IMG/VR virus record: IMGVR_UViG_3300045988_060960
Source of the DNA: a virus
Length of the DNA: 64,000 nucleotides
Reading direction: 5' to 3' (one strand)
This document shows positions 4,372-64,000 of this stretch, in pieces. The notes beneath the pieces were generated by a model. That model ran no database searches. It was not told where the DNA came from and saw only the letters and a list, made by a program, of their open reading frames with translations. The position numbers and the translations under genes were made by a program. Position 1 is the stretch's first letter; every line of letters starts with the position of its first letter.

Positions 4372-6056
4372 ACAGCTTCCTCCTTTTCATTCTCCTCGAC
4401 AACTGCTCCGCAAGCGGGGCAGGTGCCATCGTTCCGAGCCTCAATCAAATCGCCGCAGTGCGGACAGGTTTCATAGAGTCTCGCACAGTCATCGCAAACT
4501 GTCACGACATCTCCGTCGGCTTTGTGGAGGGTCTGGACATCATCGCCGTGATACAGCTCATCACACCTGTCGCAAATGTAATAATCATCCATGCAATCGT
4601 CGCAGACATAAACCTCACGACTGCCGTTGTGAGCCAGGTGCATATCCTCCCGGCGGTGATATTCGCCGCACTCCTCACACTCCTCGTAATACTCGGAGAG
4701 ACAGCTGTCACAAACATCTCGACCGTCGATGTAATTCACGCTATCATTCGCGTGATATTCGCCGCAGACATCGCAGTAGGTGTAGTTCTCATCGCGGCAA
4801 CGCTCGCAAACCCGAATCCACTCGCCGCGCGAGTTGCGAACATCGAACAGCTCCTCCTCGTATTCCTCGCAATCGTCACACATCTCCGTGTCCCTGTTTT
4901 CCGGGTCGCAATCCTCGCAGTAAACGCCGTGACTGGTTTCGCAGCCGCACATTACGCAAAGCCCCCAGGTTCCAACATCGAGCGGGTTCGCATTTTGGTC
5001 AAAATCAACTCGGGTGCTGATGTGTCCGTCAAAGTCCGGGTAGGCCCAGTCGTGATACCCGCCAAAGCCCTCTCCGACGCAAACCAAATCGCGCCGATCT
5101 CCGGTGGACGAGGTGGTTTTCCACAGGTTCGGGACATTTTCGAGGGCGGAGATTTCACGCTGAACCAGATCGCGGTACAGTTTGGAATCTTCCGCAGCTC
5201 CGTAAACGCCTCCCGACGTGTTGTACATCCGGCTCTGCAAAAGCAGTCCGCTGCCGGGGCGATACGCAAAAATCTGCCGCGTGGTCTTGCGGTTATTAAG
5301 CGTTTCTGCATCCGTCGGGTCTGCTACGGTGAAAACGATGAAGCTAACATCGTCCCGAGCATATCCGGTGCAGCCGTTGTTGTACTCATACTCGGTCGAG
5401 TTAAACGAGTGGCAGCTCGTGAGCGTGCTTCCGCGATCATCGCATTTCGGATTGCTCATCGTGATGAAATGCGCCGGGTTGATGCTGACGAACATCTTGA
5501 ACCCAATCTTCTTGGAGTTCAGCTCATCCGCGAACTGTGCGAATAGCCGCTGGAACTCGCTGCCGGCGGTTTCGTCCGCCACACCAAGTTCAACACACAG
5601 AGCCTTAAAAATACGGCTCGGTTTTCGAGCGGGGGCGTAGGCTTTAGGAGCCAGTCGTTTAATAGCCGCGATATACTGCTCGCGCATATAATCATCGGCG
5701 TTCGGCTCAGAAAAGAACCGGATTGCGTAAACGATGTTGTCCCGAAGGATTCGGTCCCCATTGTGCATGGGGTCGTACAGAATCTGGCGGGCAAGCCGTT
5801 CGATGCGATTATAGTCAGGGTTGTGGGTTCTGGTTCCGTTGATAACCAGCGCGTCCAACTTAGTGTTCCAGACCGGGGACTTGCTGAACAACTCGCGCAG
5901 CCCCTGCTTTGCGATGCTGCTGTCCTTCGCAAGGCGCTTGATGAATTTCTCCGATACATCATTCAGCACATCGCGCTGACGGGTGTGGCGTCCGTAGTCT
6001 TCCATTGCCGTTCTGATATTCTGTTCGGCCTGCTCGATGATTTCCTGCATTTCCAT
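4368..6056 (-). CDS. Large hypothetical protein; the C-terminal third is an array of CxxC zinc-ribbon-like units
   Basis: 562 aa. The C-terminal region runs CVMCGC..CEDCD..CDDCE..CERCR..CDVCG..CDSCL..CEECG..CDDCM..CDRCD..CDDCA..CPHCG..CPACG. The N-terminal two-thirds are unrecognised. Confidence 0.75.
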   Translation of the reverse strand: MEMQEIIEQAEQNIRTAMEDYGRHTRQRDVLNDVSEKFIKRLAKDSSIAKQGLRELFSKSPVWNTKLDALVINGTRTHNPDYNRIERLARQILYDPMHNGDRILRDNIVYAIRFFSEPNADDYMREQYIAAIKRLAPKAYAPARKPSRIFKALCVELGVADETAGSEFQRLFAQFADELNSKKIGFKMFVSINPAHFITMSNPKCDDRGSTLTSCHSFNSTEYEYNNGCTGYARDDVSFIVFTVADPTDAETLNNRKTTRQIFAYRPGSGLLLQSRMYNTSGGVYGAAEDSKLYRDLVQREISALENVPNLWKTTSSTGDRRDLVCVGEGFGGYHDWAYPDFDGHISTRVDFDQNANPLDVGTWGLCVMCGCETSHGVYCEDCDPENRDTEMCDDCEEYEEELFDVRNSRGEWIRVCERCRDENYTYCDVCGEYHANDSVNYIDGRDVCDSCLSEYYEECEECGEYHRREDMHLAHNGSREVYVCDDCMDDYYICDRCDELYHGDDVQTLHKADGDVVTVCDDCARLYETCPHCGDLIEARNDGTCPACGAVVEENEKEEAV

Positions 6057-6966: not shown

Positions 6967-7057
6967 TTGTTTGTCCTCCTTAGCAGTAATTCCGACCTGC
7001 CATCATCAGCGCCGGGGAGGTCGGCCCCCGGCGGACGCCCTTTCGGGCGTTTCGGCT

Positions 7058-15602: not shown

Positions 15603-15941
15603 ATGGTTGTGAAAAAGGCTGGCGGAAAAATATACGGGGCGGTCTTTACAGCCGCCGAGCGGAAGGCCATGAACATCGAGATCGAGAGACAGCTTGCGGA
15701 GTATACGCGCAAATACGAAGTAGAGCTGAACGCCAGAGTTTTGTACGTTCTTCGAGAGCAGTTGGGTTTCGGTGAGCAGCGTCTGCGGAGGTTCTTCGAT
15801 CGGTTTCAGATCGAGATAGATGATCTGGTCAAATACTACGAGATGGGCGACGAGGACGCCGCGTGGCTCTGTACGAGGAAGCTCAAAGAAGCCGGAATCG
15901 ACGTCGCCCAGTGGTGCAAAGAGGCTGAAACATTGGAATGA
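15603..15941 (+). CDS. Hypothetical protein
   Basis: 112-aa ORF. Its last 17 nt, including the TGA stop, lie inside the 313-bp element. Confidence 0.6.
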   Translation: MVVKKAGGKIYGAVFTAAERKAMNIEIERQLAEYTRKYEVELNARVLYVLREQLGFGEQRLRRFFDRFQIEIDDLVKYYEMGDEDAAWLCTRKLKEAGIDVAQWCKEAETLE

Positions 15942-16237
15942 AACATCTGAATTTAAGTCAAACATTAGACACGAAATTCAAACTTTAGGCGGGAAATTCA
16001 ACCCAATGTTTCAGGCCGTGAATGTTTCAATGTATCGCCAATGTTTCACCAATGTATCGGCCAAAACCCCAGTAAAATCAAGGGTTTCCGGCGTTTTGAA
16101 ACATTGAAACATTCATTTCTATAAATTATGAAAATAGAGAGATTAGAGAGATTAGAGAAAATATCGCACGTCTCTAATCTCTCTAATCCGCCTGATTTGC
16201 GCGTAGTACGCGCGCGCGAAACGGCTGAATGTTTCAG
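15925..16237 (+). repeat. 313-bp non-coding element, copy A, bounded by 10-bp terminal inverted repeats CTGAAACATT...AATGTTTCAG
   Basis: It aligns end to end with the reverse complement of 41902-42214, which is the same length. It contains 8 exact TGAAACAT/ATGTTTCA octamers (15926, 15939, 16097, 16105 forward; 16006, 16022, 16041, 16229 reverse), an AT-rich block and an 18-bp hairpin (16141-16158 / 16171-16188). Confidence 0.85.
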
Positions 16238-16247
16238 GAGGAAAAAC

Positions 16248-24935: not shown

Positions 24936-25121
24936 TTATTCGGGCCGCCGGTATTCAGCCGTATTTACGTCGCCGACCAACGCTTGTAAACGGGCGGAAA
25001 GTGCCTCGTCTTCCACAGCCTGCGCCCCGAGCTGTTCCAGCACAAAAGCCTGGGCTTTTATGATCTCAGCCTGTCGAACGCAGATGTCGGCCAGTTTTTC
25101 GATCACTTCCGCGCTGCTCAC
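24936..25121 (-). CDS. Small hypothetical protein, GTG start
   Basis: 61 aa. There is a GTGA overlap with the stop of the XkdX-like gene. Confidence 0.5.
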   Translation of the reverse strand: MSSAEVIEKLADICVRQAEIIKAQAFVLEQLGAQAVEDEALSARLQALVGDVNTAEYRRPE

Positions 25122-25294
25122 TTTGCAGCGACAGGATACTTCTCGCCGGTAATCTCCTCGTAGCGGTCAGCGTTGATTTCGCCGTCCTCCACGCGGGACG
25201 CCAGCTCGGTCTTAACACTGTTCTTGCGGTAGTCGGGAACAGAATCCCAAACCTGCGTACCGGCAATCAGCCGGTTGGCCCAAATCTTATTCAT
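25118..25294 (-). CDS. XkdX-family small phage protein (58 aa)
   Basis: Absent from the ORF track. My translation is MNKIWANRLIAGTQVWDSVPDYRKNSVKTELASRVEDGEINADRYEEITGEKYPVAAK*. The W...I...YEEITGE pattern and its position after the fibres resemble XkdX. Confidence 0.6.
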   Translation of the reverse strand: MNKIWANRLIAGTQVWDSVPDYRKNSVKTELASRVEDGEINADRYEEITGEKYPVAAK

Positions 25295-25737
25295 CAGTTT
25301 GTACCTCCTTCAGAAATGGCAAGAGTGCTGACAAGGGAATCCAGCTCGCATACGGCGTCCTCAATGGCGCTCATACGCTCATCATTCATCTCGTCCTGCT
25401 CACACATGGCGTCCTCGATCTCGCTCATCCGGGTGCCGGTCAGCTCGTCCTGCTCACACAGGGCGTCTTCCAGCGCGGCAGTGCTCTCGTTGACCTGCTG
25501 GATAACAGGCCCGGTCTTATCGACGGCACGGTAATGCCGGTCGATCTCGTACCAGTCGTAGCAGTTGCCCTCCACGTCCTCGGCGCTCTCGATTTTCCGC
25601 ACGACGCGGAAGTTATCGGTGATGGTCTGGTCGGGGAATGTCTGCTCGATCTGGTGGAACCCGGTCAGGTCGGTGTGGGAATCGCCCTTTGTTTTGAGGA
25701 CTTCGATTTCGCCCTGCGTTCCAAATACGTATTCCAA
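25294..25737 (-). CDS. Hypothetical protein in the XkdW position, with EDAxCEQDE repeats
   Basis: A TTG start follows AAAGGAGGA. The repeats are EDALCEQDE, EDAMCEQDE and EDAVCELD. Confidence 0.6.
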   Translation of the reverse strand: MEYVFGTQGEIEVLKTKGDSHTDLTGFHQIEQTFPDQTITDNFRVVRKIESAEDVEGNCYDWYEIDRHYRAVDKTGPVIQQVNESTAALEDALCEQDELTGTRMSEIEDAMCEQDEMNDERMSAIEDAVCELDSLVSTLAISEGGTN

Positions 25738-26861
25738 GTGAGTTCCTCCTTTCGCTGCTTCTGCCGGATGATGCGCTTCAGCTCACGCATGAGACGTTCA
25801 CCTTGGAACAGCATCCGATAGATGTTGTGATTATTGCAGTGTTTCAACTGCCCGAGGCGGGAGAGCAGACTGGCCGCCGCTCCTGCCAAAATGCGCTTTT
25901 TCAAGCGTCTCCGCTTTCGATAACGAGCGATAGCCCGTTTAATGCGGAGAAGATTGTGTTTACGCGGGATGGTGTAACCGCGCCCATAGCGATAGCCTAC
26001 TGCATCAGGCATACGCTCTTTCGGCCTCTCATACCCGCGTCTTGGAGGGTTTAACGGGACGCGTGGATTCCTCCTCACTGTCGGGAATATCTGCCAATCG
26101 GCTTTGAGCCGGAGCTGATGGGCATTCAGCCATGTCTCCACGAGCACACGCAGCTTCTTCAGCTTGCGTTTGTTCGAGCCAAAAATGGTAAGGTTATCCA
26201 TGTAGCGGACGTAGTGCTTGCACAGCCCGCTCTCCCGGATAAGCATGTCCAGCGGCTGCAAGACCGTGTTGGCAAACCACTGAGAGGTATAGGCCCCAAT
26301 CAAAACGCCATCCTTGATGACGCGCCAAATGAGGTCGAGAACGCGATAGTCTTTGATGAGCTGGCGCATACGGTCCATCACGACCTCCGGCTTCAGGCTG
26401 TCGTAGAAGTGGTGGATGTCACCGCAGAACTCATACTTCGTCCCGCGAGGGTCTTTGTCCATCCAGATCTCGATGGCTTTCCGGGCGTGATGCGGGCCTC
26501 TGTCACGGATGCTCCCGCAGCAGTAGTAATCCATCCCGCGCATGAACACAGGCTGCAACACCTGAATCAGAGCGTGGTGGACGTACTGGTCGGGCCACTG
26601 GACCGGCTCGCTGACCGTGCGCCATTTCCGGGCGCTGGCGTCCCATCGCTGAGACACGTGAGGTTTCTTCTGCTCGAAACCGTCGATGATGATTTGCCGC
26701 AGCTCCTTGACGCGCTCCTCCTTTGTTTCCTCCACCCATGCGGTGCAAGAGTTCGGACGATGATGCGTTCGCCAGTGGTGAGTGCGGTTCACCTCGTCGA
26801 TGGCAAGCAGCAGGTTGTCATCAGATACGAGCTTCTCAAAGAGATTCTTTGCTCGCTTCAC
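25665..26861 (-). CDS. DGR-type reverse transcriptase
   Basis: It has NLFEKLVSDDNLLLAIDEV, HHALIQVLQPVF, the DGR hallmark IGAYTSQWFANTVL, and the catalytic box YVRYMDNLTIFG. The GTG start at 26861 follows AAAAGGAGGA plus 9 nt. The upstream in-frame part of the ORF is the TR. Confidence 0.9.
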   Translation of the reverse strand: MKRAKNLFEKLVSDDNLLLAIDEVNRTHHWRTHHRPNSCTAWVEETKEERVKELRQIIIDGFEQKKPHVSQRWDASARKWRTVSEPVQWPDQYVHHALIQVLQPVFMRGMDYYCCGSIRDRGPHHARKAIEIWMDKDPRGTKYEFCGDIHHFYDSLKPEVVMDRMRQLIKDYRVLDLIWRVIKDGVLIGAYTSQWFANTVLQPLDMLIRESGLCKHYVRYMDNLTIFGSNKRKLKKLRVLVETWLNAHQLRLKADWQIFPTVRRNPRVPLNPPRRGYERPKERMPDAVGYRYGRGYTIPRKHNLLRIKRAIARYRKRRRLKKRILAGAAASLLSRLGQLKHCNNHNIYRMLFQGERLMRELKRIIRQKQRKEELTWNTYLERRAKSKSSKQRAIPTPT

Positions 26862-27004
26862 AGGGATGTTCCTCCTTTTAGCTGTACGGGCTTTCCAGCG
26901 CCTCCGCAGAGGTGTACTAACCCGCTCCCCAAATTTGCTTATCTTCACCAAGGGGTGCGCGACTACCTGTGCCGTGAAATGGAGGATTAAGCAAAGCACA
27001 AAAA

Positions 27005-27147
27005 GGATGCGGCAGCCGATGTTCGCGTTCGAGTTCGAGACGTCGTTGTAGTTGACGTAGAACAGGCCGTGGTTGGTGTTCTGGTTGTAGTTGCCACCAA
27101 CGTAGAGGCACGGGTTCGACGAGTTGAAGTTCCAGTTATCGCACGTA
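27005..27147 (-). repeat. DGR template repeat (TR)
   Basis: 143 bp aligned to 27265-27407 (offset 260). It is rich in AAC codons on the minus strand (translates as CDNWNFNSSNPCLYVGGNYNQNTNHGLFYVNYNDVSNSNANIGCR). Confidence 0.9.
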
Positions 27148-27189
27148 ACCCAGAACGATGACATCGGCACTGCACAGGTAGCCCCGGTT

Positions 27190-27259
27190 GGTCCCCGCGC
27201 CTACGGCGCGGGTCCCTTATGAGGGGGCTTCGCCCCCTCAAACTCCCCCATTAGGGGAG
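27190..27259 (-). promoter_or_regulatory. Three consecutive GC-rich hairpins between VR and TR
   Basis: Hairpins: CTCCCC/GGGGAG (27243-27259, including the stop codon), GAGGGGGC-TTC-GCCCCCTC (27221-27239), and CCCGCGCC-TAC-GGCGCGGG (about 27193-27213). Confidence 0.6.
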
Positions 27260-29350
27260 TTCTTGGAGGCGGCAGCCGATGTTCGCGTACGAGTACGAGA
27301 CGCCGTTGAAGTAGACGAAGAACAGGCCGCGGTAGGTGCTCTGGACGTAGTAGCCACCAACGCAGAGGCACGGGTACGACGAGTTGAAGTACCAGTAATC
27401 GCACGAATACGTAGAATCGCTGCCACTGGACGCAGACGGCGCGAACACCGGGAACCCAGCCTGAGTTCTCACTGTGAACTTAGAAGGATAACCGCTCGTT
27501 AGCGTACCCACGTTCACGCCGTTGGCGCTGTCGCTGAACTGGTTGGGATTCTTGATGACGTTCAGGCCGCTGCCGTTGTAATAGCAACCGTCCATCCAGT
27601 CGTACACGTTATCCCACAAGCCCTCGATGTTGCGGTACTGGGTACCGCAGCCGTAGGTGGTGCGGGAGTTCTTCGTGGTGCCGGTATGGTAGGGCATACT
27701 GTCGGTGTACCCCATATTCTCGGTGTTGCTGTCGTTACCGCAGCCATACCCGATTTTCGCCTGAGAGTTCCAATCGGCGAACTCCACAATGTAGAGCAGC
27801 CAGATGGTGAAACGCATCAGGAAGTCCATCTGCCAGATGTTCGCGCCGAGGCCATGAATGGTGGAACGAGCACTGGACCGGGTGATGTTCGCCTTGGGGC
27901 GCTGGCCGCTGGTGGACTTGTTGCTGGACGTGCCGCAGTGATAACGACCGATGTACACGACATCGCGCTCGCCCTTGCCGTCGCCCCTGTCCATGTGGGC
28001 GGGGGAAACAGAAAAGCCGCTCTGCGCTCTGTCGGCGATCTGGATTTTCAGGCCGTTGCCGTTCTGGGTCAGCTTGTACCAGAACTTCGGGATGGCGACC
28101 ATCGTACCGCCGGTGCGCTCGCTCTTGACCATGCCCGCCCACGGCTGCAAATCGTCGAAGGGAGAGCTGTACTTACTTGCGCCCTGCACATACGGCACGG
28201 GGTCAGTGAAGCCCGCCGCCTCATCGGTGCGGGTCCACTTGGTCGTGCTGCTGCCATCCCAGCTCGCGCCGTAGATGTGGACCATGTTGGTCACGTTGAC
28301 CGTAAAGGTCTTGTTGGCGGGAGCGTTGTGGTTCGTGCCAGCCGCGACCTTTACGGTTACAGTCACGTTGCCCTCATCGAGCGCGGTGACGTTTACCTTG
28401 TTGCCGCTGACCGACACGCTGACGACATCGGGGTCGCCGGACGTGGCGGTAATCGCACCGTCGCCCGCACGGGTCACAGTGACGGAGCCGGTAGGCGAAT
28501 CGCCGTTCAGCGACAGCGAAGTCGGATTGAGGCTCAGAGAGCCAGCAGCCTTGGCAATGCTCCACGCCACGGTCTTGGCGGTGGTCGTGCCGTCGCTCCA
28601 CTGGTAGCCGGGCTTCGGAGTGAAGCTGGCATTGTAGCTGCCGGCGTTGGTGCCGCTGGTCGTGCCGCCCAGTGTCAGCTCGGCGCTGTTGTAATCGTCG
28701 AACGTGGGGGTCTGCGCCTGACCGGTGTAGGTCAAGCTCTCGCCCTGAGACGGGATGGCCGCAATGGGGATTTTGACGGTGGCGGTGTAGTTCTCGTCGG
28801 CCTCCGTCACGTTGACCTCTACGGACGCAGAGGTCTTGCCGGAAATTGTGGCGCTTACCGTGTATTTGCCGGCCTTCTTGACCGAGATCGCAGCCACGCC
28901 GCTGCCGTTGGCGGTTGCGGTGTAGGCGCTGCCACCGAGGACAGCCTTTGCCTCCGCGTTGGGGGCAGTCGTGACCGTAATGGTCGCGGTGAACACGGCC
29001 AGCGTGACTTCATACTGGCCGAAGTACGCGCCGGTGGTCACGGTTGCGGAATACTGCTCGCCAGACGCTGTGCTCGCGCTGACGGTGTACTCCGTGTTGC
29101 AGTTCTTGACGCTGACGGAATCCACAAGACCCTCCGGCACGGTGCCGGTCTTGGTGTCCCCCGCGCCGTCAGTAACCGTGTACTGCTGGCCGGCAAAGTC
29201 AGCGTCGAACGTGATTTTCAGGACGCACCCGGAACCGCCGCCCCCTTCAAGCGCCTCGTTCGCCTTCTCCAACGCGCTGTTGGCAAGGGCGCGAACCGCT
29301 TCAAGCTCGGGACCGCTCACGCCGGGTACGTTTACACTTCCATAGCCCAT
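27251..29350 (-). CDS. DGR target: receptor-binding tail-fibre protein with Ig-like repeats and a C-terminal FGE-sulfatase/C-type-lectin-like VR domain
   Basis: 699 aa. The central region has T/S/V-rich beta repeats. The C-terminus ...YIGRYHCG...GLWDNVYDWMDG...CDYWYFNSSYPCLCVGGYYVQSTYRGLFFVYFNGVSYSYANIGCRLQELP carries the VR. Confidence 0.85.
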   Translation of the reverse strand: MGYGSVNVPGVSGPELEAVRALANSALEKANEALEGGGGSGCVLKITFDADFAGQQYTVTDGAGDTKTGTVPEGLVDSVSVKNCNTEYTVSASTASGEQYSATVTTGAYFGQYEVTLAVFTATITVTTAPNAEAKAVLGGSAYTATANGSGVAAISVKKAGKYTVSATISGKTSASVEVNVTEADENYTATVKIPIAAIPSQGESLTYTGQAQTPTFDDYNSAELTLGGTTSGTNAGSYNASFTPKPGYQWSDGTTTAKTVAWSIAKAAGSLSLNPTSLSLNGDSPTGSVTVTRAGDGAITATSGDPDVVSVSVSGNKVNVTALDEGNVTVTVKVAAGTNHNAPANKTFTVNVTNMVHIYGASWDGSSTTKWTRTDEAAGFTDPVPYVQGASKYSSPFDDLQPWAGMVKSERTGGTMVAIPKFWYKLTQNGNGLKIQIADRAQSGFSVSPAHMDRGDGKGERDVVYIGRYHCGTSSNKSTSGQRPKANITRSSARSTIHGLGANIWQMDFLMRFTIWLLYIVEFADWNSQAKIGYGCGNDSNTENMGYTDSMPYHTGTTKNSRTTYGCGTQYRNIEGLWDNVYDWMDGCYYNGSGLNVIKNPNQFSDSANGVNVGTLTSGYPSKFTVRTQAGFPVFAPSASSGSDSTYSCDYWYFNSSYPCLCVGGYYVQSTYRGLFFVYFNGVSYSYANIGCRLQELP
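27265..27407 (-). repeat. DGR variable repeat (VR) at the 3' end of the target gene
   Basis: By my manual alignment there are 18 mismatches to the TR. Every one is at a position where the TR coding (minus) strand has A. The first non-A mismatch (27148/27408) marks the repeat boundary. Confidence 0.9.
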
Positions 29351-41886: not shown

Positions 41887-41901
41887 AGGTCAACACTCCT
41901 T

Positions 41902-42214
41902 CTGAAACATTCAGCCGTTTCGCGCGCGCGTACTATGCACGAATTAGGCGTATTAGAGAGAATAGGCGTATACGTGCTGCACACGAATACGCCTAAATAC
42001 TCTATTTTAGATATTATTAGGAATAAATGTTTCAATGTTTCAAAACGGTCAAAACCCCAGTAAATACGGGGATTTTGGGTGAAACATTGCCGATACATTG
42101 GCGAAACTTTGAAACATTCGGGGGCTGAAACATTGGGTTGAATTTCCCGCCTAAACTTCGACTTTCGTGTCTAATGTTAGACTTTAATTCAGATGTATCA
42201 CCCCAATGTTTCAG
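41902..42214 (-). repeat. 313-bp non-coding element, copy B (inverted relative to copy A)
   Basis: It has the same 10-bp termini and the same length. It contains 7 exact TGAAACAT/ATGTTTCA octamers (41903, 42080, 42110, 42126; 42027, 42035, 42206) and a hairpin TAGGCGTAT/ATACGCCTA (41963-41971 / 41987-41995) at the position homologous to the hairpin in copy A. Confidence 0.85.
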
Positions 42215-56704: not shown

Positions 56705-57541
56705 TCAGTTCCTTTGCTTTATTTTTTCGTTCCCGTTGAGAGGCGGCCCGAGGAGGTCGCAATCCACGTCAGGAGCGGGCTGAACATAGCCGTAGTGGTT
56801 TGCATAACAGTAGGCGCAGCCGTTGCTGCAAGTGCTGTACGCACCGATATCGACGCTCTCAACGCATTGGCAAAGGCCGCGCTGGTTGCGGTCCTTTGGC
56901 TTGTCAACGCCAAACATTTTTCCATCGACGCAGCAAGAATGGGGTATTCCCAAATCCTCTGCGCAGGAACTTAAAACGATCCCGTGCTGCCGTGCAATCT
57001 CGAAAAGTTCCTGCGCAAATTCGCGCTGCTGCTCCGGCGACAAGGGCTGTATTTTGAGCGGTCGGAGGTCTACGCTTCGGTAGGAATCGACGAAGCTCAT
57101 CACCGCCTTATACGTGTGGCCTTCGAGCGCCTCCGCGATTTTGGTAAAAGCCCTGACGTGATAATCCCAGGTGTATTTCTCATTCAGAAAGACGGGATCG
57201 TAACGCCAGATGGCCTTATCCGCCCCGATCTTTTTGAACGCCGGAATAACAATCTCGTTCTTATCGGGAATATTCCGCTCCACATCCCGGCCATACGGGG
57301 TGATGGTGTACTGGAAATAATATTTGAACGCATCCAGCTCGTGAATTCTATCGAGCATGGGGGCTGCGTTTTTGGTCCAAAAAACAAACCCATCTACTTT
57401 GTCGGGCGTGAGGGATACACGCCCGACTTGTAGAGGGTTGTATGGGTTTCTAAGGAGGACAAATCCCTTACCCACGCGGTTGTAAAACCACTCGGAGAAC
57501 AAAGCCGGGATGTCCGTCCGTCTACTTGCGCTCACGATCAT
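56705..57541 (-). CDS. DUF1848-like protein with a C-terminal Cys cluster (putative Fe-S, radical-SAM-like)
   Basis: The N-terminus is MIVSASRRTDIPALFSEWFYNRV and the C-terminus is GLCQCVESVDIGAYSTCSNGCAYCYANH. Start set at 57541 (ATGA overlap with the upstream gene). The track ORF extends further by read-through. Confidence 0.8.
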   Translation of the reverse strand: MIVSASRRTDIPALFSEWFYNRVGKGFVLLRNPYNPLQVGRVSLTPDKVDGFVFWTKNAAPMLDRIHELDAFKYYFQYTITPYGRDVERNIPDKNEIVIPAFKKIGADKAIWRYDPVFLNEKYTWDYHVRAFTKIAEALEGHTYKAVMSFVDSYRSVDLRPLKIQPLSPEQQREFAQELFEIARQHGIVLSSCAEDLGIPHSCCVDGKMFGVDKPKDRNQRGLCQCVESVDIGAYSTCSNGCAYCYANHYGYVQPAPDVDCDLLGPPLNGNEKIKQRN

Positions 57542-58008
57542 AATGGCATCCCATCCTTCAAGTAATTCGCAAATATCCAGTTTCGGCAGGTCCGCTGAGA
57601 CTTTGTATAAACTCCGGGCGGATTCGGAACATAGTCCCAGAAGTGAATTCTGCGGGCGTTTGTGATGTCGAGCTTGATTCTGTCGTTTTCGATGTGAACT
57701 TCCGAATTGCTGTCCGGCACAAACGCGACGTGCGTATTCAACTCCCACACAAAACCATCGCTCAGCCCGCAAAGATAATACGCTTTCGCTCGCGGGCTTT
57801 GCCCCACCATGATGTCAACAACGGCCTGCGATTTGTGCAGTGTTCCGTAGTAGACCCGGTTGTCCTTCTCGCCGATAAAACACTTGGCGCAGCATTGCGA
57901 GATGTCAACGTCCCGAATGTCTCGGAGCCAGAAGAAATTGCATTTCTTCCGAATCTCCAATCGCAGGTGCATCGGCGCGTGTGTAACTATGAAATCCGAT
58001 GGTATCAT
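57538..58008 (-). CDS. Cys-containing 145-aa family protein, paralog 3 of 3
   Basis: MHLRLEIRKKCNFFWLRDIR..CCAKCFIG..AYYLCGLS..NTHVAFVP..TCRNWIFANY. The likely true start is the ATG at 57972, because the ATG at 58008 lies inside the -10 box. Confidence 0.8.
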   Translation of the reverse strand: MIPSDFIVTHAPMHLRLEIRKKCNFFWLRDIRDVDISQCCAKCFIGEKDNRVYYGTLHKSQAVVDIMVGQSPRAKAYYLCGLSDGFVWELNTHVAFVPDSNSEVHIENDRIKLDITNARRIHFWDYVPNPPGVYTKSQRTCRNWIFANYLKDGMPL

Positions 58009-58036
58009 TATAGCACCCCCTTAAATGACAGGTCAA
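58007..58036 (-). promoter_or_regulatory. Candidate promoter TTGACC-18-TATAAT for the three-gene SAM cassette
   Basis: On the minus strand, TTGACC is at 58036-58031 and TATAAT at 58012-58007. Confidence 0.45.
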
Positions 58037-58440
58037 TGACAGCTTTGTGACACGACGGAGACCCCTTGAATTTCAGGGTTCTGCGCCATGATCCAGTTCC
58101 CGAACTCGGTCAGGATCACCTCGCAGGGGCAAGAAAGCGCCGGCAAGAACTCCACGCCGGTCTCACTCATCGCACTGCGAACCGCAATGAACTCGCGGTC
58201 ATACCCGCTCACACGAGTTCTGGAAACCTTGGCTCGGTCGCCGTGGTCAGTGAAGCTCTCGAACAATGCGTGAGCGAGCGGATTTCCGGCGCTCAGCGAT
58301 TCACCCACAGTGAGCCGAGCTAAAACAACTTTGTAGCCTCCCGGAACAGTACCGACGAGGGTGTATTCACTGACGTTGCTCACGTAGTTCGGGAGAGGAT
58401 TGCCGCCCTCAAAGGGCTGCGGAATAAAATTCTTAATCAT
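58033..58440 (-). CDS. Hypothetical protein
   Basis: 135-aa ORF that overlaps its neighbours. Confidence 0.6.
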   Translation of the reverse strand: MIKNFIPQPFEGGNPLPNYVSNVSEYTLVGTVPGGYKVVLARLTVGESLSAGNPLAHALFESFTDHGDRAKVSRTRVSGYDREFIAVRSAMSETGVEFLPALSCPCEVILTEFGNWIMAQNPEIQGVSVVSQSCH

Positions 58441-58681
58441 CGTTGTCTACAACCTCCACAAAAGTATTTTCATCTTCGCAGTCCAGAGCGAGCATCAGGT
58501 CTGTATAGCTGGCGTTCTGAATTTCGATGGAACGCGAATTGGTGAGATCGCGTACCGTGATTTTCCGAGTGGGATGAAGGGCAGATACGAGATCAACCAG
58601 GTATTTCAAAACGCAGCAAACCAGAACCGTAAAACCGAGCCAGATCCAGAAGCTCGAAAAGATAAACTTAATAAATTCCAT
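58433..58681 (-). CDS. Small membrane protein (82 aa)
   Basis: The ATG overlaps the upstream stop. The product begins MEFIKFIFSSFWIWLGFTVLVCCVL. Confidence 0.55.
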   Translation of the reverse strand: MEFIKFIFSSFWIWLGFTVLVCCVLKYLVDLVSALHPTRKITVRDLTNSRSIEIQNASYTDLMLALDCEDENTFVEVVDNDD

Positions 58682-59223
58682 CACACGTTTCCTCCTCCAA
58701 CTGTTGAATCGTGCCACTGCAAACCGCGCTTTTTGTAAAGCGGAATCCAATGTTCGGCGTAGAAATCATAACCGGCTCCGTCGATTCCGAAGAAGTACCC
58801 CCACTCATCGTGGTGATAAATTCGGAATCCGCAGTCCGACATCGCACGAATGCCATCCTCATTTTCGAGCCAGTAATCATCGCAGGAATCTCCGAAGCTC
58901 CACATCGTTCCCCACATGGGGAGCGGATCATCGTTTGCCAATTCCAGATTATCCGGTTCTACGAGGATGGAAGGTCCTCCATCCAGATCCACACGGTACT
59001 TGTCGATCTCCGCGGAATACGCGACGACCTCGCCGAGATGTTCCAGCGTGTCACAATTTTCGGGCAGATCGAATACGTAAACCCGCCTGCCGGCACTGGG
59101 AAACGTCAGCTCCTCCCACTCCTCGCACTTAGACTGCATGAGCCGCTCAATCATACCCTGCGGAATGGCATTGAACTCGCGGACCCATTTTTGAGTGGCG
59201 TCATTTATAGATAAGCCTTTCAT
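58681..59223 (-). CDS. Hypothetical conserved phage protein
   Basis: 180 aa. It has a PMWGTMWSF...GIDGAGYDFYAEHWIPLYKKRGLQWH block. I recall the pattern from phage proteins of unknown function. Confidence 0.65.
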   Translation of the reverse strand: MKGLSINDATQKWVREFNAIPQGMIERLMQSKCEEWEELTFPSAGRRVYVFDLPENCDTLEHLGEVVAYSAEIDKYRVDLDGGPSILVEPDNLELANDDPLPMWGTMWSFGDSCDDYWLENEDGIRAMSDCGFRIYHHDEWGYFFGIDGAGYDFYAEHWIPLYKKRGLQWHDSTVGGGNV

Positions 59224-59238
59224 GTCCTTTTCACCTCC

Positions 59239-59940
59239 TTACAGTTCATACTCTTTGGGTCGCCCAGCCTTTCCCTTGTACCGAACGCTGGGACGCACCC
59301 ACACAGTTTTGCCGGACTTGTAATGCCGCAAGTGGCCTCTGATATTGACCTCGTGCTCAGGCTTGGTATACTTGCGCTTGGCGCCTTCCGGCTTCGGCAA
59401 ATCCTCCGGCTGGAAATCGCCGAGCGTGTAGATGCGTCGGATGAGGGGCTGCGGTCGCCGTATGTGGCGGCCTTTTTTCTTGGACTTCGCAGGTCGATGC
59501 TCCGTTCGCTGCTCGACCTTGACCACCTCCCGGTAGTGGGTCATAAACAGCATCAGCGCGTGATACTTCTGCGCCTCTTTCCGGCACATATTGTCCGACA
59601 TGACGAGCACATTGAGCAGCTCCAAATCCACCGCAGTCTGACTACCTGCCGGAGCCACCCGGCGGTTTCGGATTTCGGTGGTCTCCGGGTCATAGTCGAA
59701 CGCCACGATGGGCGGGAGGTTCGGCTTCGTTGTGACATACACAACGATCTCCGCGAAGCTGCCCTTGCTCTCGAACGTGAACTCGACCTGCTCCTCGCAA
59801 AGTTCCACAACACCGGATTCCATAGGGGCCAGAAATTTCTCGCGGTCGAGCCAGTTGAAGTTCTCGAAGTACCAATCGAGAACCAGCTGCATACGAGCGT
59901 TGCTCTTAACAATGATGCGATCAGCCGAGTTCCTGTTCAC
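59239..59940 (-). CDS. Hypothetical protein with a basic C-terminus
   Basis: 233 aa. A GTG start follows GGAGGG. Confidence 0.65.
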   Translation of the reverse strand: MNRNSADRIIVKSNARMQLVLDWYFENFNWLDREKFLAPMESGVVELCEEQVEFTFESKGSFAEIVVYVTTKPNLPPIVAFDYDPETTEIRNRRVAPAGSQTAVDLELLNVLVMSDNMCRKEAQKYHALMLFMTHYREVVKVEQRTEHRPAKSKKKGRHIRRPQPLIRRIYTLGDFQPEDLPKPEGAKRKYTKPEHEVNIRGHLRHYKSGKTVWVRPSVRYKGKAGRPKEYEL

Positions 59941-59943
59941 AGG

Positions 59944-60561
59944 TCAACCCTCCAATCTGGTGCTCCACCGAGCAGCTTTTTCGCGGATGAACCGCTCAAC
60001 TTCATCCTGGTCCAATCCCAAAGCTGCCGCGCACACAACCACATCGGCGAACTCCTCATTCAAAGCGCGGGACGCCTCACTCGTACTGACCGGGGTGCGG
60101 TTGCGCTTGTCAATAGTTCTGCGCAACTTCAGTGCGGCCTGAGACAATTCAGCGGCTTCCTCTGCCAGCCCTGCCAGAAGCTCACAGCAGCCAAGCAAAG
60201 TGTGTACTTCCGCAAGCTCACGGCCCCAGTCTTCGAGAGCCTTTTCGATACTTACCTCCGGGCGAATTACCTCGCGGATAATCTCTACCCGAAGGCAGCC
60301 CTCGATATCCTCCGATTCGTCGGCATGGTCATAATCAGCGAGCTTAACTTTCAGAGCCAGATCCCGAGACGGGATGAAAGCATCCACAATGGAGGGGATG
60401 CAGCTGAACCCGTTGTCGGTGTTCCAGCAGACTGCGAAGTCCTTCCCGCTTTGCCGCAGAACGTAGCACAGCTCGTTCAGCGAGCGAGGGTTGCTCTTGG
60501 CGAGGAGCGGGTGCTTTGCAAACTCCTCGTCAAGCCAGGTCTTGAATTGCTCAATATTCAT
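59944..60561 (-). CDS. MazG-like nucleotide pyrophosphohydrolase domain protein
   Basis: The C-terminal half LLAGLAEEAAELSQAALKLRR...LNEEFADVVVCAAALGLD matches the MazG EExxE/helical pattern. The ATG at 60561 follows AAAAGGAGGA. Confidence 0.65.
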   Translation of the reverse strand: MNIEQFKTWLDEEFAKHPLLAKSNPRSLNELCYVLRQSGKDFAVCWNTDNGFSCIPSIVDAFIPSRDLALKVKLADYDHADESEDIEGCLRVEIIREVIRPEVSIEKALEDWGRELAEVHTLLGCCELLAGLAEEAAELSQAALKLRRTIDKRNRTPVSTSEASRALNEEFADVVVCAAALGLDQDEVERFIREKAARWSTRLEG

Positions 60562-60585
60562 CTCATGTCCTCCTTTTTTGGGCAA

Positions 60586-60615
60586 TAGAAAAAGGCCCGC
60601 CGGTTTGGCGGGCCT
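60586..60615 (-). terminator. Rho-independent terminator (minus strand), mirrored at 60868-60897
   Basis: The 9-bp stem AGGCCCGCC / GGCGGGCCT is followed by a T-run on the minus strand. Confidence 0.6.
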
Positions 60616-60921
60616 CTCGGTATAGGCAAATTCAGCTATCTATCAAGGTGGAAACTATACCAAAAAGTCTTTTGGACTTCAATGTATCACCGCCTATTCG
60701 CAATCTTTATGTCACAGAACAGCCATTAGTCACACGGGGTATACCCCGTGTGACTAATGGCTGTTCTGTGACATAAAGATTGCGAATAGGCGGTGATACA
60801 TTGAAGTCCAAAAGACTTTTTGGTATAGTTTCCACCTTGATAGATAGCTGAATTTGCCTATACCGAGAGGCCCGCCAAACCGGCGGGCCTTTTTCTATTG
60901 CCCAAAAAAGGAGGACATGAG

Positions 60922-61539
60922 ATGAATATTGAGCAATTCAAGACCTGGCTTGACGAGGAGTTTGCAAAGCACCCGCTCCTCGCCAAGAGCAACCCTCGCT
61001 CGCTGAACGAGCTGTGCTACGTTCTGCGGCAAAGCGGGAAGGACTTCGCAGTCTGCTGGAACACCGACAACGGGTTCAGCTGCATCCCCTCCATTGTGGA
61101 TGCTTTCATCCCGTCTCGGGATCTGGCTCTGAAAGTTAAGCTCGCTGATTATGACCATGCCGACGAATCGGAGGATATCGAGGGCTGCCTTCGGGTAGAG
61201 ATTATCCGCGAGGTAATTCGCCCGGAGGTAAGTATCGAAAAGGCTCTCGAAGACTGGGGCCGTGAGCTTGCGGAAGTACACACTTTGCTTGGCTGCTGTG
61301 AGCTTCTGGCAGGGCTGGCAGAGGAAGCCGCTGAATTGTCTCAGGCCGCACTGAAGTTGCGCAGAACTATTGACAAGCGCAACCGCACCCCGGTCAGTAC
61401 GAGTGAGGCGTCCCGCGCTTTGAATGAGGAGTTCGCCGATGTGGTTGTGTGCGCGGCAGCTTTGGGATTGGACCAGGATGAAGTTGAGCGGTTCATCCGC
61501 GAAAAAGCTGCTCGGTGGAGCACCAGATTGGAGGGTTGA
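60922..61539 (+). CDS. Mirror copy of the MazG-like gene
   Basis: Its translation is identical to 59944-60561. Confidence 0.5.
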   Translation: MNIEQFKTWLDEEFAKHPLLAKSNPRSLNELCYVLRQSGKDFAVCWNTDNGFSCIPSIVDAFIPSRDLALKVKLADYDHADESEDIEGCLRVEIIREVIRPEVSIEKALEDWGRELAEVHTLLGCCELLAGLAEEAAELSQAALKLRRTIDKRNRTPVSTSEASRALNEEFADVVVCAAALGLDQDEVERFIREKAARWSTRLEG

Positions 61540-61542
61540 CCT

Positions 61543-62244
61543 GTGAACAGGAACTCGGCTGATCGCATCATTGTTAAGAGCAACGCTCGTATGCAGCTGG
61601 TTCTCGATTGGTACTTCGAGAACTTCAACTGGCTCGACCGCGAGAAATTTCTGGCCCCTATGGAATCCGGTGTTGTGGAACTTTGCGAGGAGCAGGTCGA
61701 GTTCACGTTCGAGAGCAAGGGCAGCTTCGCGGAGATCGTTGTGTATGTCACAACGAAGCCGAACCTCCCGCCCATCGTGGCGTTCGACTATGACCCGGAG
61801 ACCACCGAAATCCGAAACCGCCGGGTGGCTCCGGCAGGTAGTCAGACTGCGGTGGATTTGGAGCTGCTCAATGTGCTCGTCATGTCGGACAATATGTGCC
61901 GGAAAGAGGCGCAGAAGTATCACGCGCTGATGCTGTTTATGACCCACTACCGGGAGGTGGTCAAGGTCGAGCAGCGAACGGAGCATCGACCTGCGAAGTC
62001 CAAGAAAAAAGGCCGCCACATACGGCGACCGCAGCCCCTCATCCGACGCATCTACACGCTCGGCGATTTCCAGCCGGAGGATTTGCCGAAGCCGGAAGGC
62101 GCCAAGCGCAAGTATACCAAGCCTGAGCACGAGGTCAATATCAGAGGCCACTTGCGGCATTACAAGTCCGGCAAAACTGTGTGGGTGCGTCCCAGCGTTC
62201 GGTACAAGGGAAAGGCTGGGCGACCCAAAGAGTATGAACTGTAA
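61543..62244 (+). CDS. Mirror copy of the 233-aa hypothetical protein
   Basis: Its translation is identical to 59239-59940. Confidence 0.5.
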   Translation: MNRNSADRIIVKSNARMQLVLDWYFENFNWLDREKFLAPMESGVVELCEEQVEFTFESKGSFAEIVVYVTTKPNLPPIVAFDYDPETTEIRNRRVAPAGSQTAVDLELLNVLVMSDNMCRKEAQKYHALMLFMTHYREVVKVEQRTEHRPAKSKKKGRHIRRPQPLIRRIYTLGDFQPEDLPKPEGAKRKYTKPEHEVNIRGHLRHYKSGKTVWVRPSVRYKGKAGRPKEYEL

Positions 62245-62259
62245 GGAGGTGAAAAGGAC

Positions 62260-62802
62260 ATGAAAGGCTTATCTATAAATGACGCCACTCAAAAATGGGT
62301 CCGCGAGTTCAATGCCATTCCGCAGGGTATGATTGAGCGGCTCATGCAGTCTAAGTGCGAGGAGTGGGAGGAGCTGACGTTTCCCAGTGCCGGCAGGCGG
62401 GTTTACGTATTCGATCTGCCCGAAAATTGTGACACGCTGGAACATCTCGGCGAGGTCGTCGCGTATTCCGCGGAGATCGACAAGTACCGTGTGGATCTGG
62501 ATGGAGGACCTTCCATCCTCGTAGAACCGGATAATCTGGAATTGGCAAACGATGATCCGCTCCCCATGTGGGGAACGATGTGGAGCTTCGGAGATTCCTG
62601 CGATGATTACTGGCTCGAAAATGAGGATGGCATTCGTGCGATGTCGGACTGCGGATTCCGAATTTATCACCACGATGAGTGGGGGTACTTCTTCGGAATC
62701 GACGGAGCCGGTTATGATTTCTACGCCGAACATTGGATTCCGCTTTACAAAAAGCGCGGTTTGCAGTGGCACGATTCAACAGTTGGAGGAGGAAACGTGT
62801 GA
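62260..62802 (+). CDS. Mirror copy of the 180-aa hypothetical protein
   Basis: Its translation is identical to 58681-59223. Confidence 0.5.
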   Translation: MKGLSINDATQKWVREFNAIPQGMIERLMQSKCEEWEELTFPSAGRRVYVFDLPENCDTLEHLGEVVAYSAEIDKYRVDLDGGPSILVEPDNLELANDDPLPMWGTMWSFGDSCDDYWLENEDGIRAMSDCGFRIYHHDEWGYFFGIDGAGYDFYAEHWIPLYKKRGLQWHDSTVGGGNV

Positions 62803-63050
62803 TGGAATTTATTAAGTTTATCTTTTCGAGCTTCTGGATCTGGCTCGGTTTTACGGTTCTGGTTTGCTGCGTTTTGAAATACCTGGTTGATCTCGTATCT
62901 GCCCTTCATCCCACTCGGAAAATCACGGTACGCGATCTCACCAATTCGCGTTCCATCGAAATTCAGAACGCCAGCTATACAGACCTGATGCTCGCTCTGG
63001 ACTGCGAAGATGAAAATACTTTTGTGGAGGTTGTAGACAACGATGATTAA
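62802..63050 (+). CDS. Mirror copy of the small membrane protein
   Basis: Its translation is identical to 58433-58681. Confidence 0.45.
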   Translation: MEFIKFIFSSFWIWLGFTVLVCCVLKYLVDLVSALHPTRKITVRDLTNSRSIEIQNASYTDLMLALDCEDENTFVEVVDNDD

Positions 63051-63450
63051 GAATTTTATTCCGCAGCCCTTTGAGGGCGGCAATCCTCTCCCGAACTACG
63101 TGAGCAACGTCAGTGAATACACCCTCGTCGGTACTGTTCCGGGAGGCTACAAAGTTGTTTTAGCTCGGCTCACTGTGGGTGAATCGCTGAGCGCCGGAAA
63201 TCCGCTCGCTCACGCATTGTTCGAGAGCTTCACTGACCACGGCGACCGAGCCAAGGTTTCCAGAACTCGTGTGAGCGGGTATGACCGCGAGTTCATTGCG
63301 GTTCGCAGTGCGATGAGTGAGACCGGCGTGGAGTTCTTGCCGGCGCTTTCTTGCCCCTGCGAGGTGATCCTGACCGAGTTCGGGAACTGGATCATGGCGC
63401 AGAACCCTGAAATTCAAGGGGTCTCCGTCGTGTCACAAAGCTGTCATTGA
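63043..63450 (+). CDS. Mirror copy of the 135-aa hypothetical protein
   Basis: Its translation is identical to 58033-58440. Confidence 0.5.
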   Translation: MIKNFIPQPFEGGNPLPNYVSNVSEYTLVGTVPGGYKVVLARLTVGESLSAGNPLAHALFESFTDHGDRAKVSRTRVSGYDREFIAVRSAMSETGVEFLPALSCPCEVILTEFGNWIMAQNPEIQGVSVVSQSCH

Positions 63451-63474
63451 CCTGTCATTTAAGGGGGTGCTATA

Positions 63475-63945
63475 ATGATACCATCGGATTTCATAGTTAC
63501 ACACGCGCCGATGCACCTGCGATTGGAGATTCGGAAGAAATGCAATTTCTTCTGGCTCCGAGACATTCGGGACGTTGACATCTCGCAATGCTGCGCCAAG
63601 TGTTTTATCGGCGAGAAGGACAACCGGGTCTACTACGGAACACTGCACAAATCGCAGGCCGTTGTTGACATCATGGTGGGGCAAAGCCCGCGAGCGAAAG
63701 CGTATTATCTTTGCGGGCTGAGCGATGGTTTTGTGTGGGAGTTGAATACGCACGTCGCGTTTGTGCCGGACAGCAATTCGGAAGTTCACATCGAAAACGA
63801 CAGAATCAAGCTCGACATCACAAACGCCCGCAGAATTCACTTCTGGGACTATGTTCCGAATCCGCCCGGAGTTTATACAAAGTCTCAGCGGACCTGCCGA
63901 AACTGGATATTTGCGAATTACTTGAAGGATGGGATGCCATTATGA
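63475..63945 (+). CDS. Mirror copy of the Cys-containing family protein (paralog 3)
   Basis: Its translation is identical to 57538-58008. Confidence 0.5.
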   Translation: MIPSDFIVTHAPMHLRLEIRKKCNFFWLRDIRDVDISQCCAKCFIGEKDNRVYYGTLHKSQAVVDIMVGQSPRAKAYYLCGLSDGFVWELNTHVAFVPDSNSEVHIENDRIKLDITNARRIHFWDYVPNPPGVYTKSQRTCRNWIFANYLKDGMPL

Positions 63946-64000
63946 TCGTGAGCGCAAGTAGACGGACGGACATCCCGGCTTTGTTCTCCGAGTGGTTTTA
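63942..64000 (+). CDS. Mirror copy of the DUF1848-like gene, 5' fragment truncated by the window end
   Basis: It begins ATGATCGTGAGCGCAAGTAGACGG = MIVSASRR. Confidence 0.5.
   Translation, partial: MIVSASRRTDIPALFSEWF

Follow-up and report, generated by a model that had tools for sequence, protein, structure and literature searches.

The 64,000-nucleotide stretch of viral DNA recorded in IMG/VR as IMGVR_UViG_3300045988_060960 (the window, taken at its full length) very probably carries a functional, accessory-free diversity-generating retroelement (DGR), in which a target gene ending in a variable repeat (VR), a template repeat (TR) and the gene of a reverse transcriptase (RT) follow one another in the genome of a temperate, contractile-tailed phage of Oscillospiraceae/Butyricicoccaceae. 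The adenine specificity of the system in this phage and its relatives, the DGR type of its RT, the covariation of its RNA, the predicted C-type lectin fold of its target and the absence of Avd were all established by computation. DGRs acting on phage tail fibres are textbook knowledge, and those of gut phages have been catalogued by tens of thousands. A further instance adds little by itself, and the value of this one lies in its being a clean, well-populated example of the accessory-free class. Its main parts are listed below (positions are those of the window; aa, amino acids; pI, isoelectric point).

27251..29350, minus strand: target gene, 699 aa, with an N-terminal coil, a middle phrog_37900 region and a C-terminal variable domain
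27269..27405, minus strand: VR core, 137 nt, target codons 651-691; 16 substitutions relative to TR, all at TR adenines
27009..27145, minus strand: TR core, 137 nt; 36 mutable adenines in 23 codons, 13 of them AAC
25665..26861, minus strand: DGR reverse transcriptase, 398 aa, pI 10.4, GTG start at 26861

The repeat pair

On the minus strand, an ungapped alignment of TR (27005-27147) with VR (27265-27407) spans 143 nt and shows 18 differing positions, every one of which is an adenine in TR (18 of 18, with 38 A in TR as a whole; hypergeometric P = 1.05e-12). The preliminary description of this DNA had reached the same coordinates, length, mismatch count and restriction to adenines by manual alignment, and all are reproduced by the computational comparison; the two peptides that it reported, an Asn-rich one for TR and its VR counterpart, match the translations exactly. 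An independent repeat search of the 64-kb window returned the pair as its sole long direct repeat (141 nt, 88% identity, offset 260).

Two of the mismatches are present in every related locus with an A at the position concerned, 27146/27406 in 16 of 16 and 27008/27268 in 18 of 18, and are therefore fixed boundary differences rather than mutagenesis events. The exchanged core is the 137-nt segment listed above, with its 16 A-substitutions. VR occupies the 3′ end of the target gene (codons 651-691 of 699) and TR lies between the target stop codon and the RT start, with a gap of 117 nt separating the two repeats. None of the mutable TR adenines is found at codon position 3 and a stop codon cannot arise, while the coding potential of TR has an upper bound of about 2e21 peptides. 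The adenines of a GAT (27139) and a CAG (27082) codon are unsubstituted in every locus compared, presumably as a result of structural selection. A long open reading frame (ORF) at 25665-27170 was rejected as a gene, being an artefactual upstream extension of the RT frame through TR.

Adenine-specific variation among related phages

Relatives of the RT were gathered from IMG/VR, a Logan assembly and GTDB genomes, and substitutions were counted within the repeat core of the 22 related phage loci that have a recognisable TR/VR pair. VR is substituted at 371 of 793 TR adenines and at 6 of 2221 positions where TR has C, G or T. The spectrum at the adenines is dominated by A>G (230), followed by A>T (127) and A>C (14).

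The closest relatives allow the two repeats to be followed separately. TR is identical in the window and in loci L003, L005 and L009, and their four VRs differ at 28 columns, all of them TR adenines; the sole other variable column among these VRs is outside the repeat core. The preliminary description had made its reading depend on an A-restricted pattern, and this is the pattern that the identical-TR sisters display. There are three such sister groups in all, that of the window and two more, whose VRs differ at 28-29 adenine columns. Locus L032 also has a TR identical to that of the window, and its own VR differs at 13 core positions, all adenines. The surroundings are well conserved: the 1.5 kb upstream of VR are 96.7-98.1% identical to the window, without gaps, in L001, L005 and L007, and across the VR-TR spacer all eight close relatives show 99-100% identity, against 80-89% in the VRs. 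A prophage of Butyricicoccus pullicaecorum DSM 23266, on contig NZ_FUXW01000002.1 at about 143.6-150.8 kb and with 80% RT identity, shows 17 VR differences, at adenines only. Mutagenic homing has been recent in this lineage, on evidence that lies between genomes and not within a population or in the window genome itself.

Two of these relatives are unusual in other respects. In L004 (IMGVR_UViG_3300045988_027555), VR and TR are fused at 4640-4880 into one chimera with a VR-like 5′ end and the rest TR-like, through an exact 260-bp deletion in which the initiation of mutagenic homing (IMH) site, the stop codon and the hairpins are lost together with the box upstream of TR; either homologous recombination between VR and TR has destroyed the DGR, or the repeat was collapsed during assembly. 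L032 is a 55.7-kb contig (CATZQR010000018.1; 95% RT identity) binned in a ‘Bacteroidales’ metagenome assembly, and is probably a mis-binned phage contig; all other host assignments are to Clostridia (Butyricicoccus, Oscillospiraceae).

Reverse transcriptase and its active site

The RT gene begins at GTG 26861 behind the Shine-Dalgarno sequence AAGGAGGA (26870-26877). Its ORF is intact, and 398 aa is the length of most of the 1137 RT homologues detected. The protein matches Pfam RVT_1 and PHROG 1423 (phrog_1423), and its closest PDB match by sequence is bRT of the Bordetella phage (8ub7, E 5.5e-13), with group II intron and retron RTs ranking behind. The best superposition of the AlphaFold model (predicted local distance difference test, pLDDT, 78) is with bRT as it stands in its ribonucleoprotein (E 5e-14; template modelling score, TM, 0.80 over bRT; root-mean-square deviation 3.6 Å). 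The preliminary description had singled out the segment IGAYTSQWFAN as a DGR hallmark; it corresponds to residues 188-198 (26268-26300), aligns to IGSLTSQLFAN of bRT and contains DGR motif 4, (I/L/V)GxxxSQ, as IGAYTSQ against IGSLTSQ. Motif, sequence and predicted-fold match to bRT support the assignment of the enzyme to the DGR type. Two basic segments (pI 10.8-12) are additional to bRT, an insert modelled with low confidence (aa 264-298) and a further helix at the C-terminus (aa 356-389). An exact-sequence lookup of this RT gave no record and a near-identity DNA search of a phage collection gave no match, the best cultured-phage RT being 38% identical.

The catalytic motif is RYMDN, as against RYMDD in bRT, with YMDN at residues 220-223 (26193-26204, minus strand). 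D148 and D222 are present, and the second Asp of YxDD, a position belonging to the catalytic pair D215 and D216 in bRT, is replaced by Asn. This Asn is invariant in a 36-sequence alignment, is shared by 115 of the 120 closest homologues and is found in all 18 related loci whose RT was translated (66-97% RT identity), including those with A-specific VR divergence. Among 83 representatives at the 50% clustering level with a readable motif, YxDN occurs in the 22 nearest the query, at about 43% identity or more, and the more distant ones carry YxDD. Two distant YxDN members, L046 (YLDN) and L047 (YMDN), adjoin TR/VR pairs in which 14 and 22 mismatches, respectively, fall at template adenines, and the few mismatches at other bases lie at the edges of the aligned span. 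No mention of a YxDN motif in an RT was found in the searchable literature. We regard YxDN as a real, conserved and unexplained feature of a clade of enzymes that evidently work.

The DGR RNA

De novo prediction with RNAalifold yielded a long-range duplex that brackets TR, and the spacer between TR and RT contains a known RNA family.

27172..27186, minus strand: 5′ strand of the long-range RNA duplex, CGGGGCUACCUGUGC, a conserved box upstream of TR
26958..26972, minus strand: 3′ strand of the long-range RNA duplex, GCACAGGUAGUCGCG, in the TR-RT spacer
26973..27004, minus strand: spacer linker between TR and the duplex, U-rich and poorly conserved, without a stable stem-loop
26872..26957, minus strand: Rfam RT-18 RNA (RF03021), full length (1-84), 69.7 bits against a gathering score of 41.3
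26946-26957, minus strand: RT-18 hairpin of 4 bp with a tetraloop, CACC-CCUU-GGUG
26934-26945, minus strand: RT-18 A-rich single strand, AAGAUAAGCAAA
26880-26939, minus strand: RT-18 long stem-loop with internal loops, followed by the Shine-Dalgarno sequence

The duplex comprises 14 bp, and on 16 non-redundant sequences 97.3% of its cells are paired and five pairs show compensatory changes. The values observed for the whole structure were reached by no shuffle and no slid control. RT-18, whose stems also covary, lies directly upstream of RT in 14 of 14 scanned loci of the RT family, and scans of an RT-less control locus and of Butyrivibrio phage Arawn gave no match.

The linker folds on itself with an energy of 0 to -4 kcal/mol in 14 of 16 loci, and a search for an Avd-binding stem-loop in this 25-46-nt segment revealed no stable or conserved stem. 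Being short and unstructured, it offers no counterpart of the Avd-binding stem-loop of Bordetella phage BPP-1, which agrees with the lack of Avd. A template:primer duplex between TR and spacer like that of BPP-1 was also sought in the related loci, with nothing consistent found. A second helix, in which GCCGAUGU of the 5′ flank (27161-27168) would pair with ACAUCGGC at the 3′ end of TR, was considered and set aside as unproven (83.6% of cells pair, with one covarying pair); it would cover mutable AAC/AUC adenines and is for this reason hard to square with mutagenesis.

Within the otherwise variable linker, a conserved AAUCCUCC box (26981-26988, minus strand) is complementary to the RT Shine-Dalgarno sequence. 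The box might mask the ribosome-binding site or serve as the strand of a primer.

The 3′ boundary of the variable repeat

The 3′ end of VR and the sequence immediately downstream of it contain a candidate IMH site and a series of hairpins.

27265..27277, minus strand: IMH candidate GGCTGCCGCCTCC, A-free; a fixed C (27268) sets VR apart from TR
27005..27017, minus strand: IMH* GGCTGCCGCATCC, the TR counterpart of IMH, with a fixed A at 27008
27241..27261, minus strand: hairpin 1, AACTCCCC-TAAT(G)-GGGGAGTT, beginning 3 nt past IMH, with the stop codon TAA in its loop
27221..27239, minus strand: hairpin 2, GAGGGGGC-GAA-GCCCCCTC, with a conserved G5/C5 stem and a variable loop
27194..27212, minus strand: hairpin 3, CCCGCGCC-GTA-GGCGCGGG, variable or absent in distant relatives

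All related VRs keep GGCTGYCGYCTCC, and the TR copies read CGC[A/C/T] there. The two sequences form a candidate IMH/IMH* pair, with a C/A difference that 18 of 18 loci show as fixed. The preliminary description had taken the whole 3′ end to be invariant, and CGCGAACATCGGC is indeed unchanged between TR and VR of the window. In the relatives, however, the AAC adenines of GCGAACATC are substituted in 15 of 22 and 8 of 22 loci and its ATC adenine in 3 of 21, so that the boundary, and with it the IMH candidate, is reduced to the A-free GGCTGCCGC(C/A)TCC; invariance holds for the A-free GGCTGCCGCCTCC and not for the AAC and ATC codons that precede it.

The GC hairpins 1 and 2 are conserved in loci down to 66% RT identity, and the DNA fold of the hairpin region has a z of -5.8. 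Efficient homing in BPP-1 needs a target-site hairpin/cruciform (Guo et al. 2011, PMC3240598), and hairpins 1 and 2 are candidates for such a structure here. Hairpin 3 has no T-run and is therefore not a canonical terminator. In locus L012 (about 4560-4600), a 22-nt segment, GCTGCCGCCTCCAAGAACTCCC, made up of most of IMH and the first arm of hairpin 1, occurs as a tandem duplication downstream of VR.

Target protein

The target gene is the last of five fibre-like genes that follow the baseplate genes. Its product matches PHROG 5302 (‘tail protein’) over aa 412-699 and phrog_37900 over aa 196-356; searches with its sequence against Pfam (FGE-sulfatase and DUF1566 included) and NCBIfam gave no match, and against the PDB only chance matches to antibody light chains.

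27254..28168, minus strand: C-terminal domain with a C-type lectin/FGE-like fold, 305 aa; VR makes up its last 46 or so residues

The preliminary description had anticipated a C-type lectin or FGE-type fold, and the model of these 305 residues bears it out. The AlphaFold model (pLDDT 80.7; predicted TM, pTM, 0.87; residues 132-178 of low confidence) has TaqVP (5vf4) as its top Foldseek match (E 3e-7, probability 1.0, TMq 0.58), followed by PvdO, TvpA, FGE and EgtB. The domain belongs to a family with 2177 homologues, on varied N-termini.

Accessory genes

Avd is present in about 74% of DGRs and is not universal. In this phage genome neither a selection of 44 small ORFs nor the 122 ORFs of 90-175 aa from all six frames gave a match to Avd families, and NCBIfam and PHROG scans of the neighbouring genes and the Pfam gene list of L001 contain none. 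Profile scans for HRDC or another DGR accessory gene at the locus were likewise negative. The absence of Avd is consistent with the accessory-free Architecture A, and the DGR, which the preliminary description had called complete, is so as a member of that architecture, with all parts intact, though not in the sense of containing avd, HRDC or another accessory gene.

The one gene regularly found beside RT is an acidic ORF at 25294-25737 (pI 4.05), which overlaps the RT 3′ end by 73 nt and follows RT in every related locus. It was considered as a CH1-like DGR accessory and rejected, since homologues with 56-61% identity occur in phages that have no RT, where they stand directly after tail-fibre genes and before XkdX-like genes. 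This distribution identifies it as an ordinary phage gene in the XkdW position. It starts with TTG at 25737, behind a Shine-Dalgarno sequence (AGGAGG) inside the RT coding sequence, and its overlap with RT (25665-25737), in a different frame, is conserved in all related loci. It also contains a 54-nt tandem repeat (25340-25447).

Proposed mechanism

We infer the mode of RNA transcription, the priming of synthesis, the steps of homing and the binding of a receptor, as follows. An RNA extending from about 27190 to the RT start would be made, probably by read-through from the late tail operon. In this RNA the 14-bp duplex (27172-27186 with 26958-26972) would form with TR looped out, and the small hairpin, the A-rich strand and the RT-18 stem-loop would come next. 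RT would bind this scaffold and copy TR from within, or just 3′ of, GGCUGCCGC towards the TR 5′ end, misincorporating opposite template adenines. The cDNA would then replace VR, with IMH (27265-27277) and the adjacent GC hairpins setting the 3′ boundary and homology setting the 5′ boundary. The expected outcome is a re-randomisation of 23 codons in a tail-fibre-like protein, at its C-type-lectin-like tip, and with it a change of receptor specificity.

A further step can be proposed tentatively, and we consider it possible rather than probable: the DGR may be self-sufficient and independent of Avd. RT and the RT-18/TR-bracketing RNA alone would then carry out primed, adenine-mutagenic reverse transcription, with the basic insert and C-terminal helix of RT replacing Avd in positioning the RNA. 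The active site would work with two carboxylates and the conserved Asn (YxDN), as a naturally occurring equivalent of the Ty1 D211N mutant, perhaps with altered metal use or slower catalysis.

Several points weigh against these proposals. In Ty1, the D211N enzyme keeps polymerase activity, with a polymerisation rate constant (kpol) 223-fold lower and a preference for Mn2+, and transposition is abolished (PMC2148107). A search for the priming nucleotide and for a template:primer duplex identified neither, and no site lay between VR and RT when the surroundings of TR were scanned for promoters and terminators. The tail-fibre role of the target is suggested by its gene position and by a generic PHROG ‘tail protein’ label. 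Activity is documented at the level of the lineage, and current activity of the window genome itself is supported indirectly. Finally, Avd is essential in BPP-1, the sole DGR with a mechanism described in the literature found.

Alternative explanations

The last of these points leads to the alternative that survives best, although we hold it to be unlikely: the DGR is real but not self-sufficient, and depends on an unrecognised accessory encoded outside the cassette, such as a divergent Avd-like protein, a host protein or another phage protein, in which case it could not be called complete. In BPP-1, Avd positions the template:primer duplex. In the window it was sought with Pfam, NCBIfam and PHROG profiles only, and Wu et al. 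2018 (PMC5758913) describe avd genes as showing very little conservation. Against an outside accessory stand the lack of any Avd match in the six-frame ORFs and in the L001 gene list, the lack of a spacer counterpart of the Avd-binding stem-loop, and the occurrence of the sole conserved neighbour, the acidic ORF, in RT-less phages as well. Moreover, the genomes with accessory-free DGRs examined by Wu et al. had no remote avd either, from which an Avd-independent mechanism was inferred (PMC5758913).

It is a good deal less probable that the DGR of the window is a recently inactivated fossil, in which the differences between TR and VR stem from past activity only. One genome yields no within-population data, the fusion in L004 indicates that loss occurs or is at least assembled, and YMDN could be read as a crippled active site. 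The motif is nevertheless clade-wide and present in members with A-specific VR divergence, and is therefore not a recent lesion. The RT is also full length, and TR, IMH, the hairpins and RT-18 are identical or nearly so in sisters whose VRs differ.

Ordinary mutation, recombination between paralogous segments or diversifying selection, with no reverse transcription involved, is effectively refuted: diversifying selection is common on receptor-binding tips, but the substitutions are confined to a single base of the template (371 at A, 6 at C, G or T), TR is constant while VR varies, a DGR-type RT adjoins, and no mutable adenine falls outside codon positions 1 and 2, the codons concerned being rich in AAC and unable to give a stop.

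Comparison with known systems

Among known systems, the DGR of the window is close to that of BPP-1 (mtd-VR, avd, TR, brt). Both systems transfer sequence from TR to VR in an adenine-specific manner, and both have VR at the C-terminus of a receptor-binding phage-tail protein of C-type lectin fold, both role and fold being predicted in the present case. In both a GC-rich IMH is followed by GC hairpin structure, one hairpin in BPP-1 and two conserved ones here, and bRT is the closest solved relative of the window RT. The RNA elements agree in order as well: a TR-bracketing duplex, a short stem-loop, adenosines and a long RT-binding stem. In BPP-1 these elements include the ‘cPRT Stop’, the ‘Thumb Ring’ and the bRT-binding stem (Handa et al., bioRxiv 10.1101/2023.10.23.563531), in a study that surveyed the RNA elements in Avd-containing DGRs only. 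By contrast, the DGR of the window has neither an avd gene nor a spacer counterpart of the Avd-binding stem-loop. Its RT is 70 aa longer, with the basic insert and C-terminal helix, and has YMDN in place of YMDD; its spacer RNA is RT-18 rather than the RT-10 of BPP-1, and its host is a Gram-positive gut anaerobe.

The order of target/VR, TR and RT, together with the absence of avd, HRDC, MSL and a CH1 gene, is that of Architecture A1 and the avd-less Lineage 3 of Wu et al.; the acidic downstream gene of the window resembles their CH1 in charge only. The accessory-free Architecture A (A1) makes up 29% of the curated DGR set of these authors (PMC5758913). The modelled target domain is structurally most like TaqVP (PDB 5VF4) and TvpA (2Y3C), yet shares only 13-14% identity with them. 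RT-18 was published without an assigned function by Weinberg et al. 2017 (PMC5737381), who tied only RT-10 to a DGR, the rest being speculation. The window copy matches the Rfam model over its full length and lies directly upstream of an RT gene, as described; unlike in the Rfam entry, it makes up two-thirds of a DGR spacer, on the 3′ side, and the partner strand that lies upstream of TR falls outside the model.

The closest cultured phages, at 38% RT identity, are the Butyrivibrio phages Arawn and Idris and Lactobacillus phage LBR48, the last compared by RT sequence only. In Arawn, RT comes about 375 nt after a target gene, without an intervening avd, and imperfect repeats 242 nt apart lie upstream of RT, with differences where the RT-proximal copy has A. 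Unlike the window, Arawn has a YMDD motif and no RT-18 match. The DGR of the window also resembles the gut viral DGR clades 1, 4 and 6 of Roux et al. 2021 (PMC8144416), which are phage-encoded, come from the gut and have Firmicutes hosts; the target there is a tail protein in which Ig-like domains stand beside a C-type-lectin VR domain, and activity is frequent.

The system type and the accessory-free architecture are already known, and what is added here is the Avd-less RT-18/TR-bracketing scaffold, the conserved YxDN motif and a relative in a cultured host. The accessory-free mechanism was flagged by Wu et al. as unlike that of the Bordetella phage, and no worked-out account of it was found in the literature searched. 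This lineage offers an RNA scaffold, RT-18 with the covarying duplex, for an element-by-element comparison with the BPP-1 ribonucleoprotein, whose structure has been solved, and the prophage of the cultured strain B. pullicaecorum DSM 23266 makes Avd-independent homing approachable by experiment. A compact two-part DGR, consisting of RT and RNA, would attract use in tools for targeted in vivo mutagenesis.

Phage genome context

The window is a temperate phage genome with genes for a family A DNA polymerase, a VapE-like protein, a PD-(D/E)XK nuclease, a serine recombinase, a terminase and a portal protein. Its relatives include the B. pullicaecorum prophage and phages in Oscillospiraceae metagenome-assembled genomes. 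The late genes run from those of the contractile-tail baseplate through the five fibre-like genes, with the target last, to RT, the genes in the XkdW and XkdX positions and the endolysin; Baseplate_J, sheath initiator and plug genes lie upstream of the target. The preliminary description had placed the DGR in a PBSX-like tail module. The contractile-tail baseplate and the gene order fit this, but the XkdX matches are only sub-threshold: the ORF in that position (25118-25294) scores 18.7 bits with TIGR01669 against a cut-off of 28.2, and matches Pfam Phage_XkdX with an E of 5e-4.

Some further features of the window lie away from the DGR. Its right end is a perfect palindrome of 3259 nt per arm (57483-60741 / 60742-64000; 100% complementary, with 0 nt between the arms), with four ORFs duplicated in mirror image; a fold-back artefact of the assembly or a duplication of the contig end is the probable origin. 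About 25.7 kb apart, at 15925-16242 / 41897-42214, stand two adjacent pairs of inverted repeats (222 nt, 81%; 69 nt, 90%), and between them lie the genes for integrase, lysis, the DGR, tail fibres, baseplate and tape measure. Among the small ORFs, one matches the PemK/MazF toxin family (E 2.6e-21) and another VRR-NUC, and the phage may carry a toxin-antitoxin module. The early/replication region contains, at 6991-7057 on the minus strand, a match to the type II hammerhead ribozyme of Rfam that scores 46.2 bits, the gathering score being 37.

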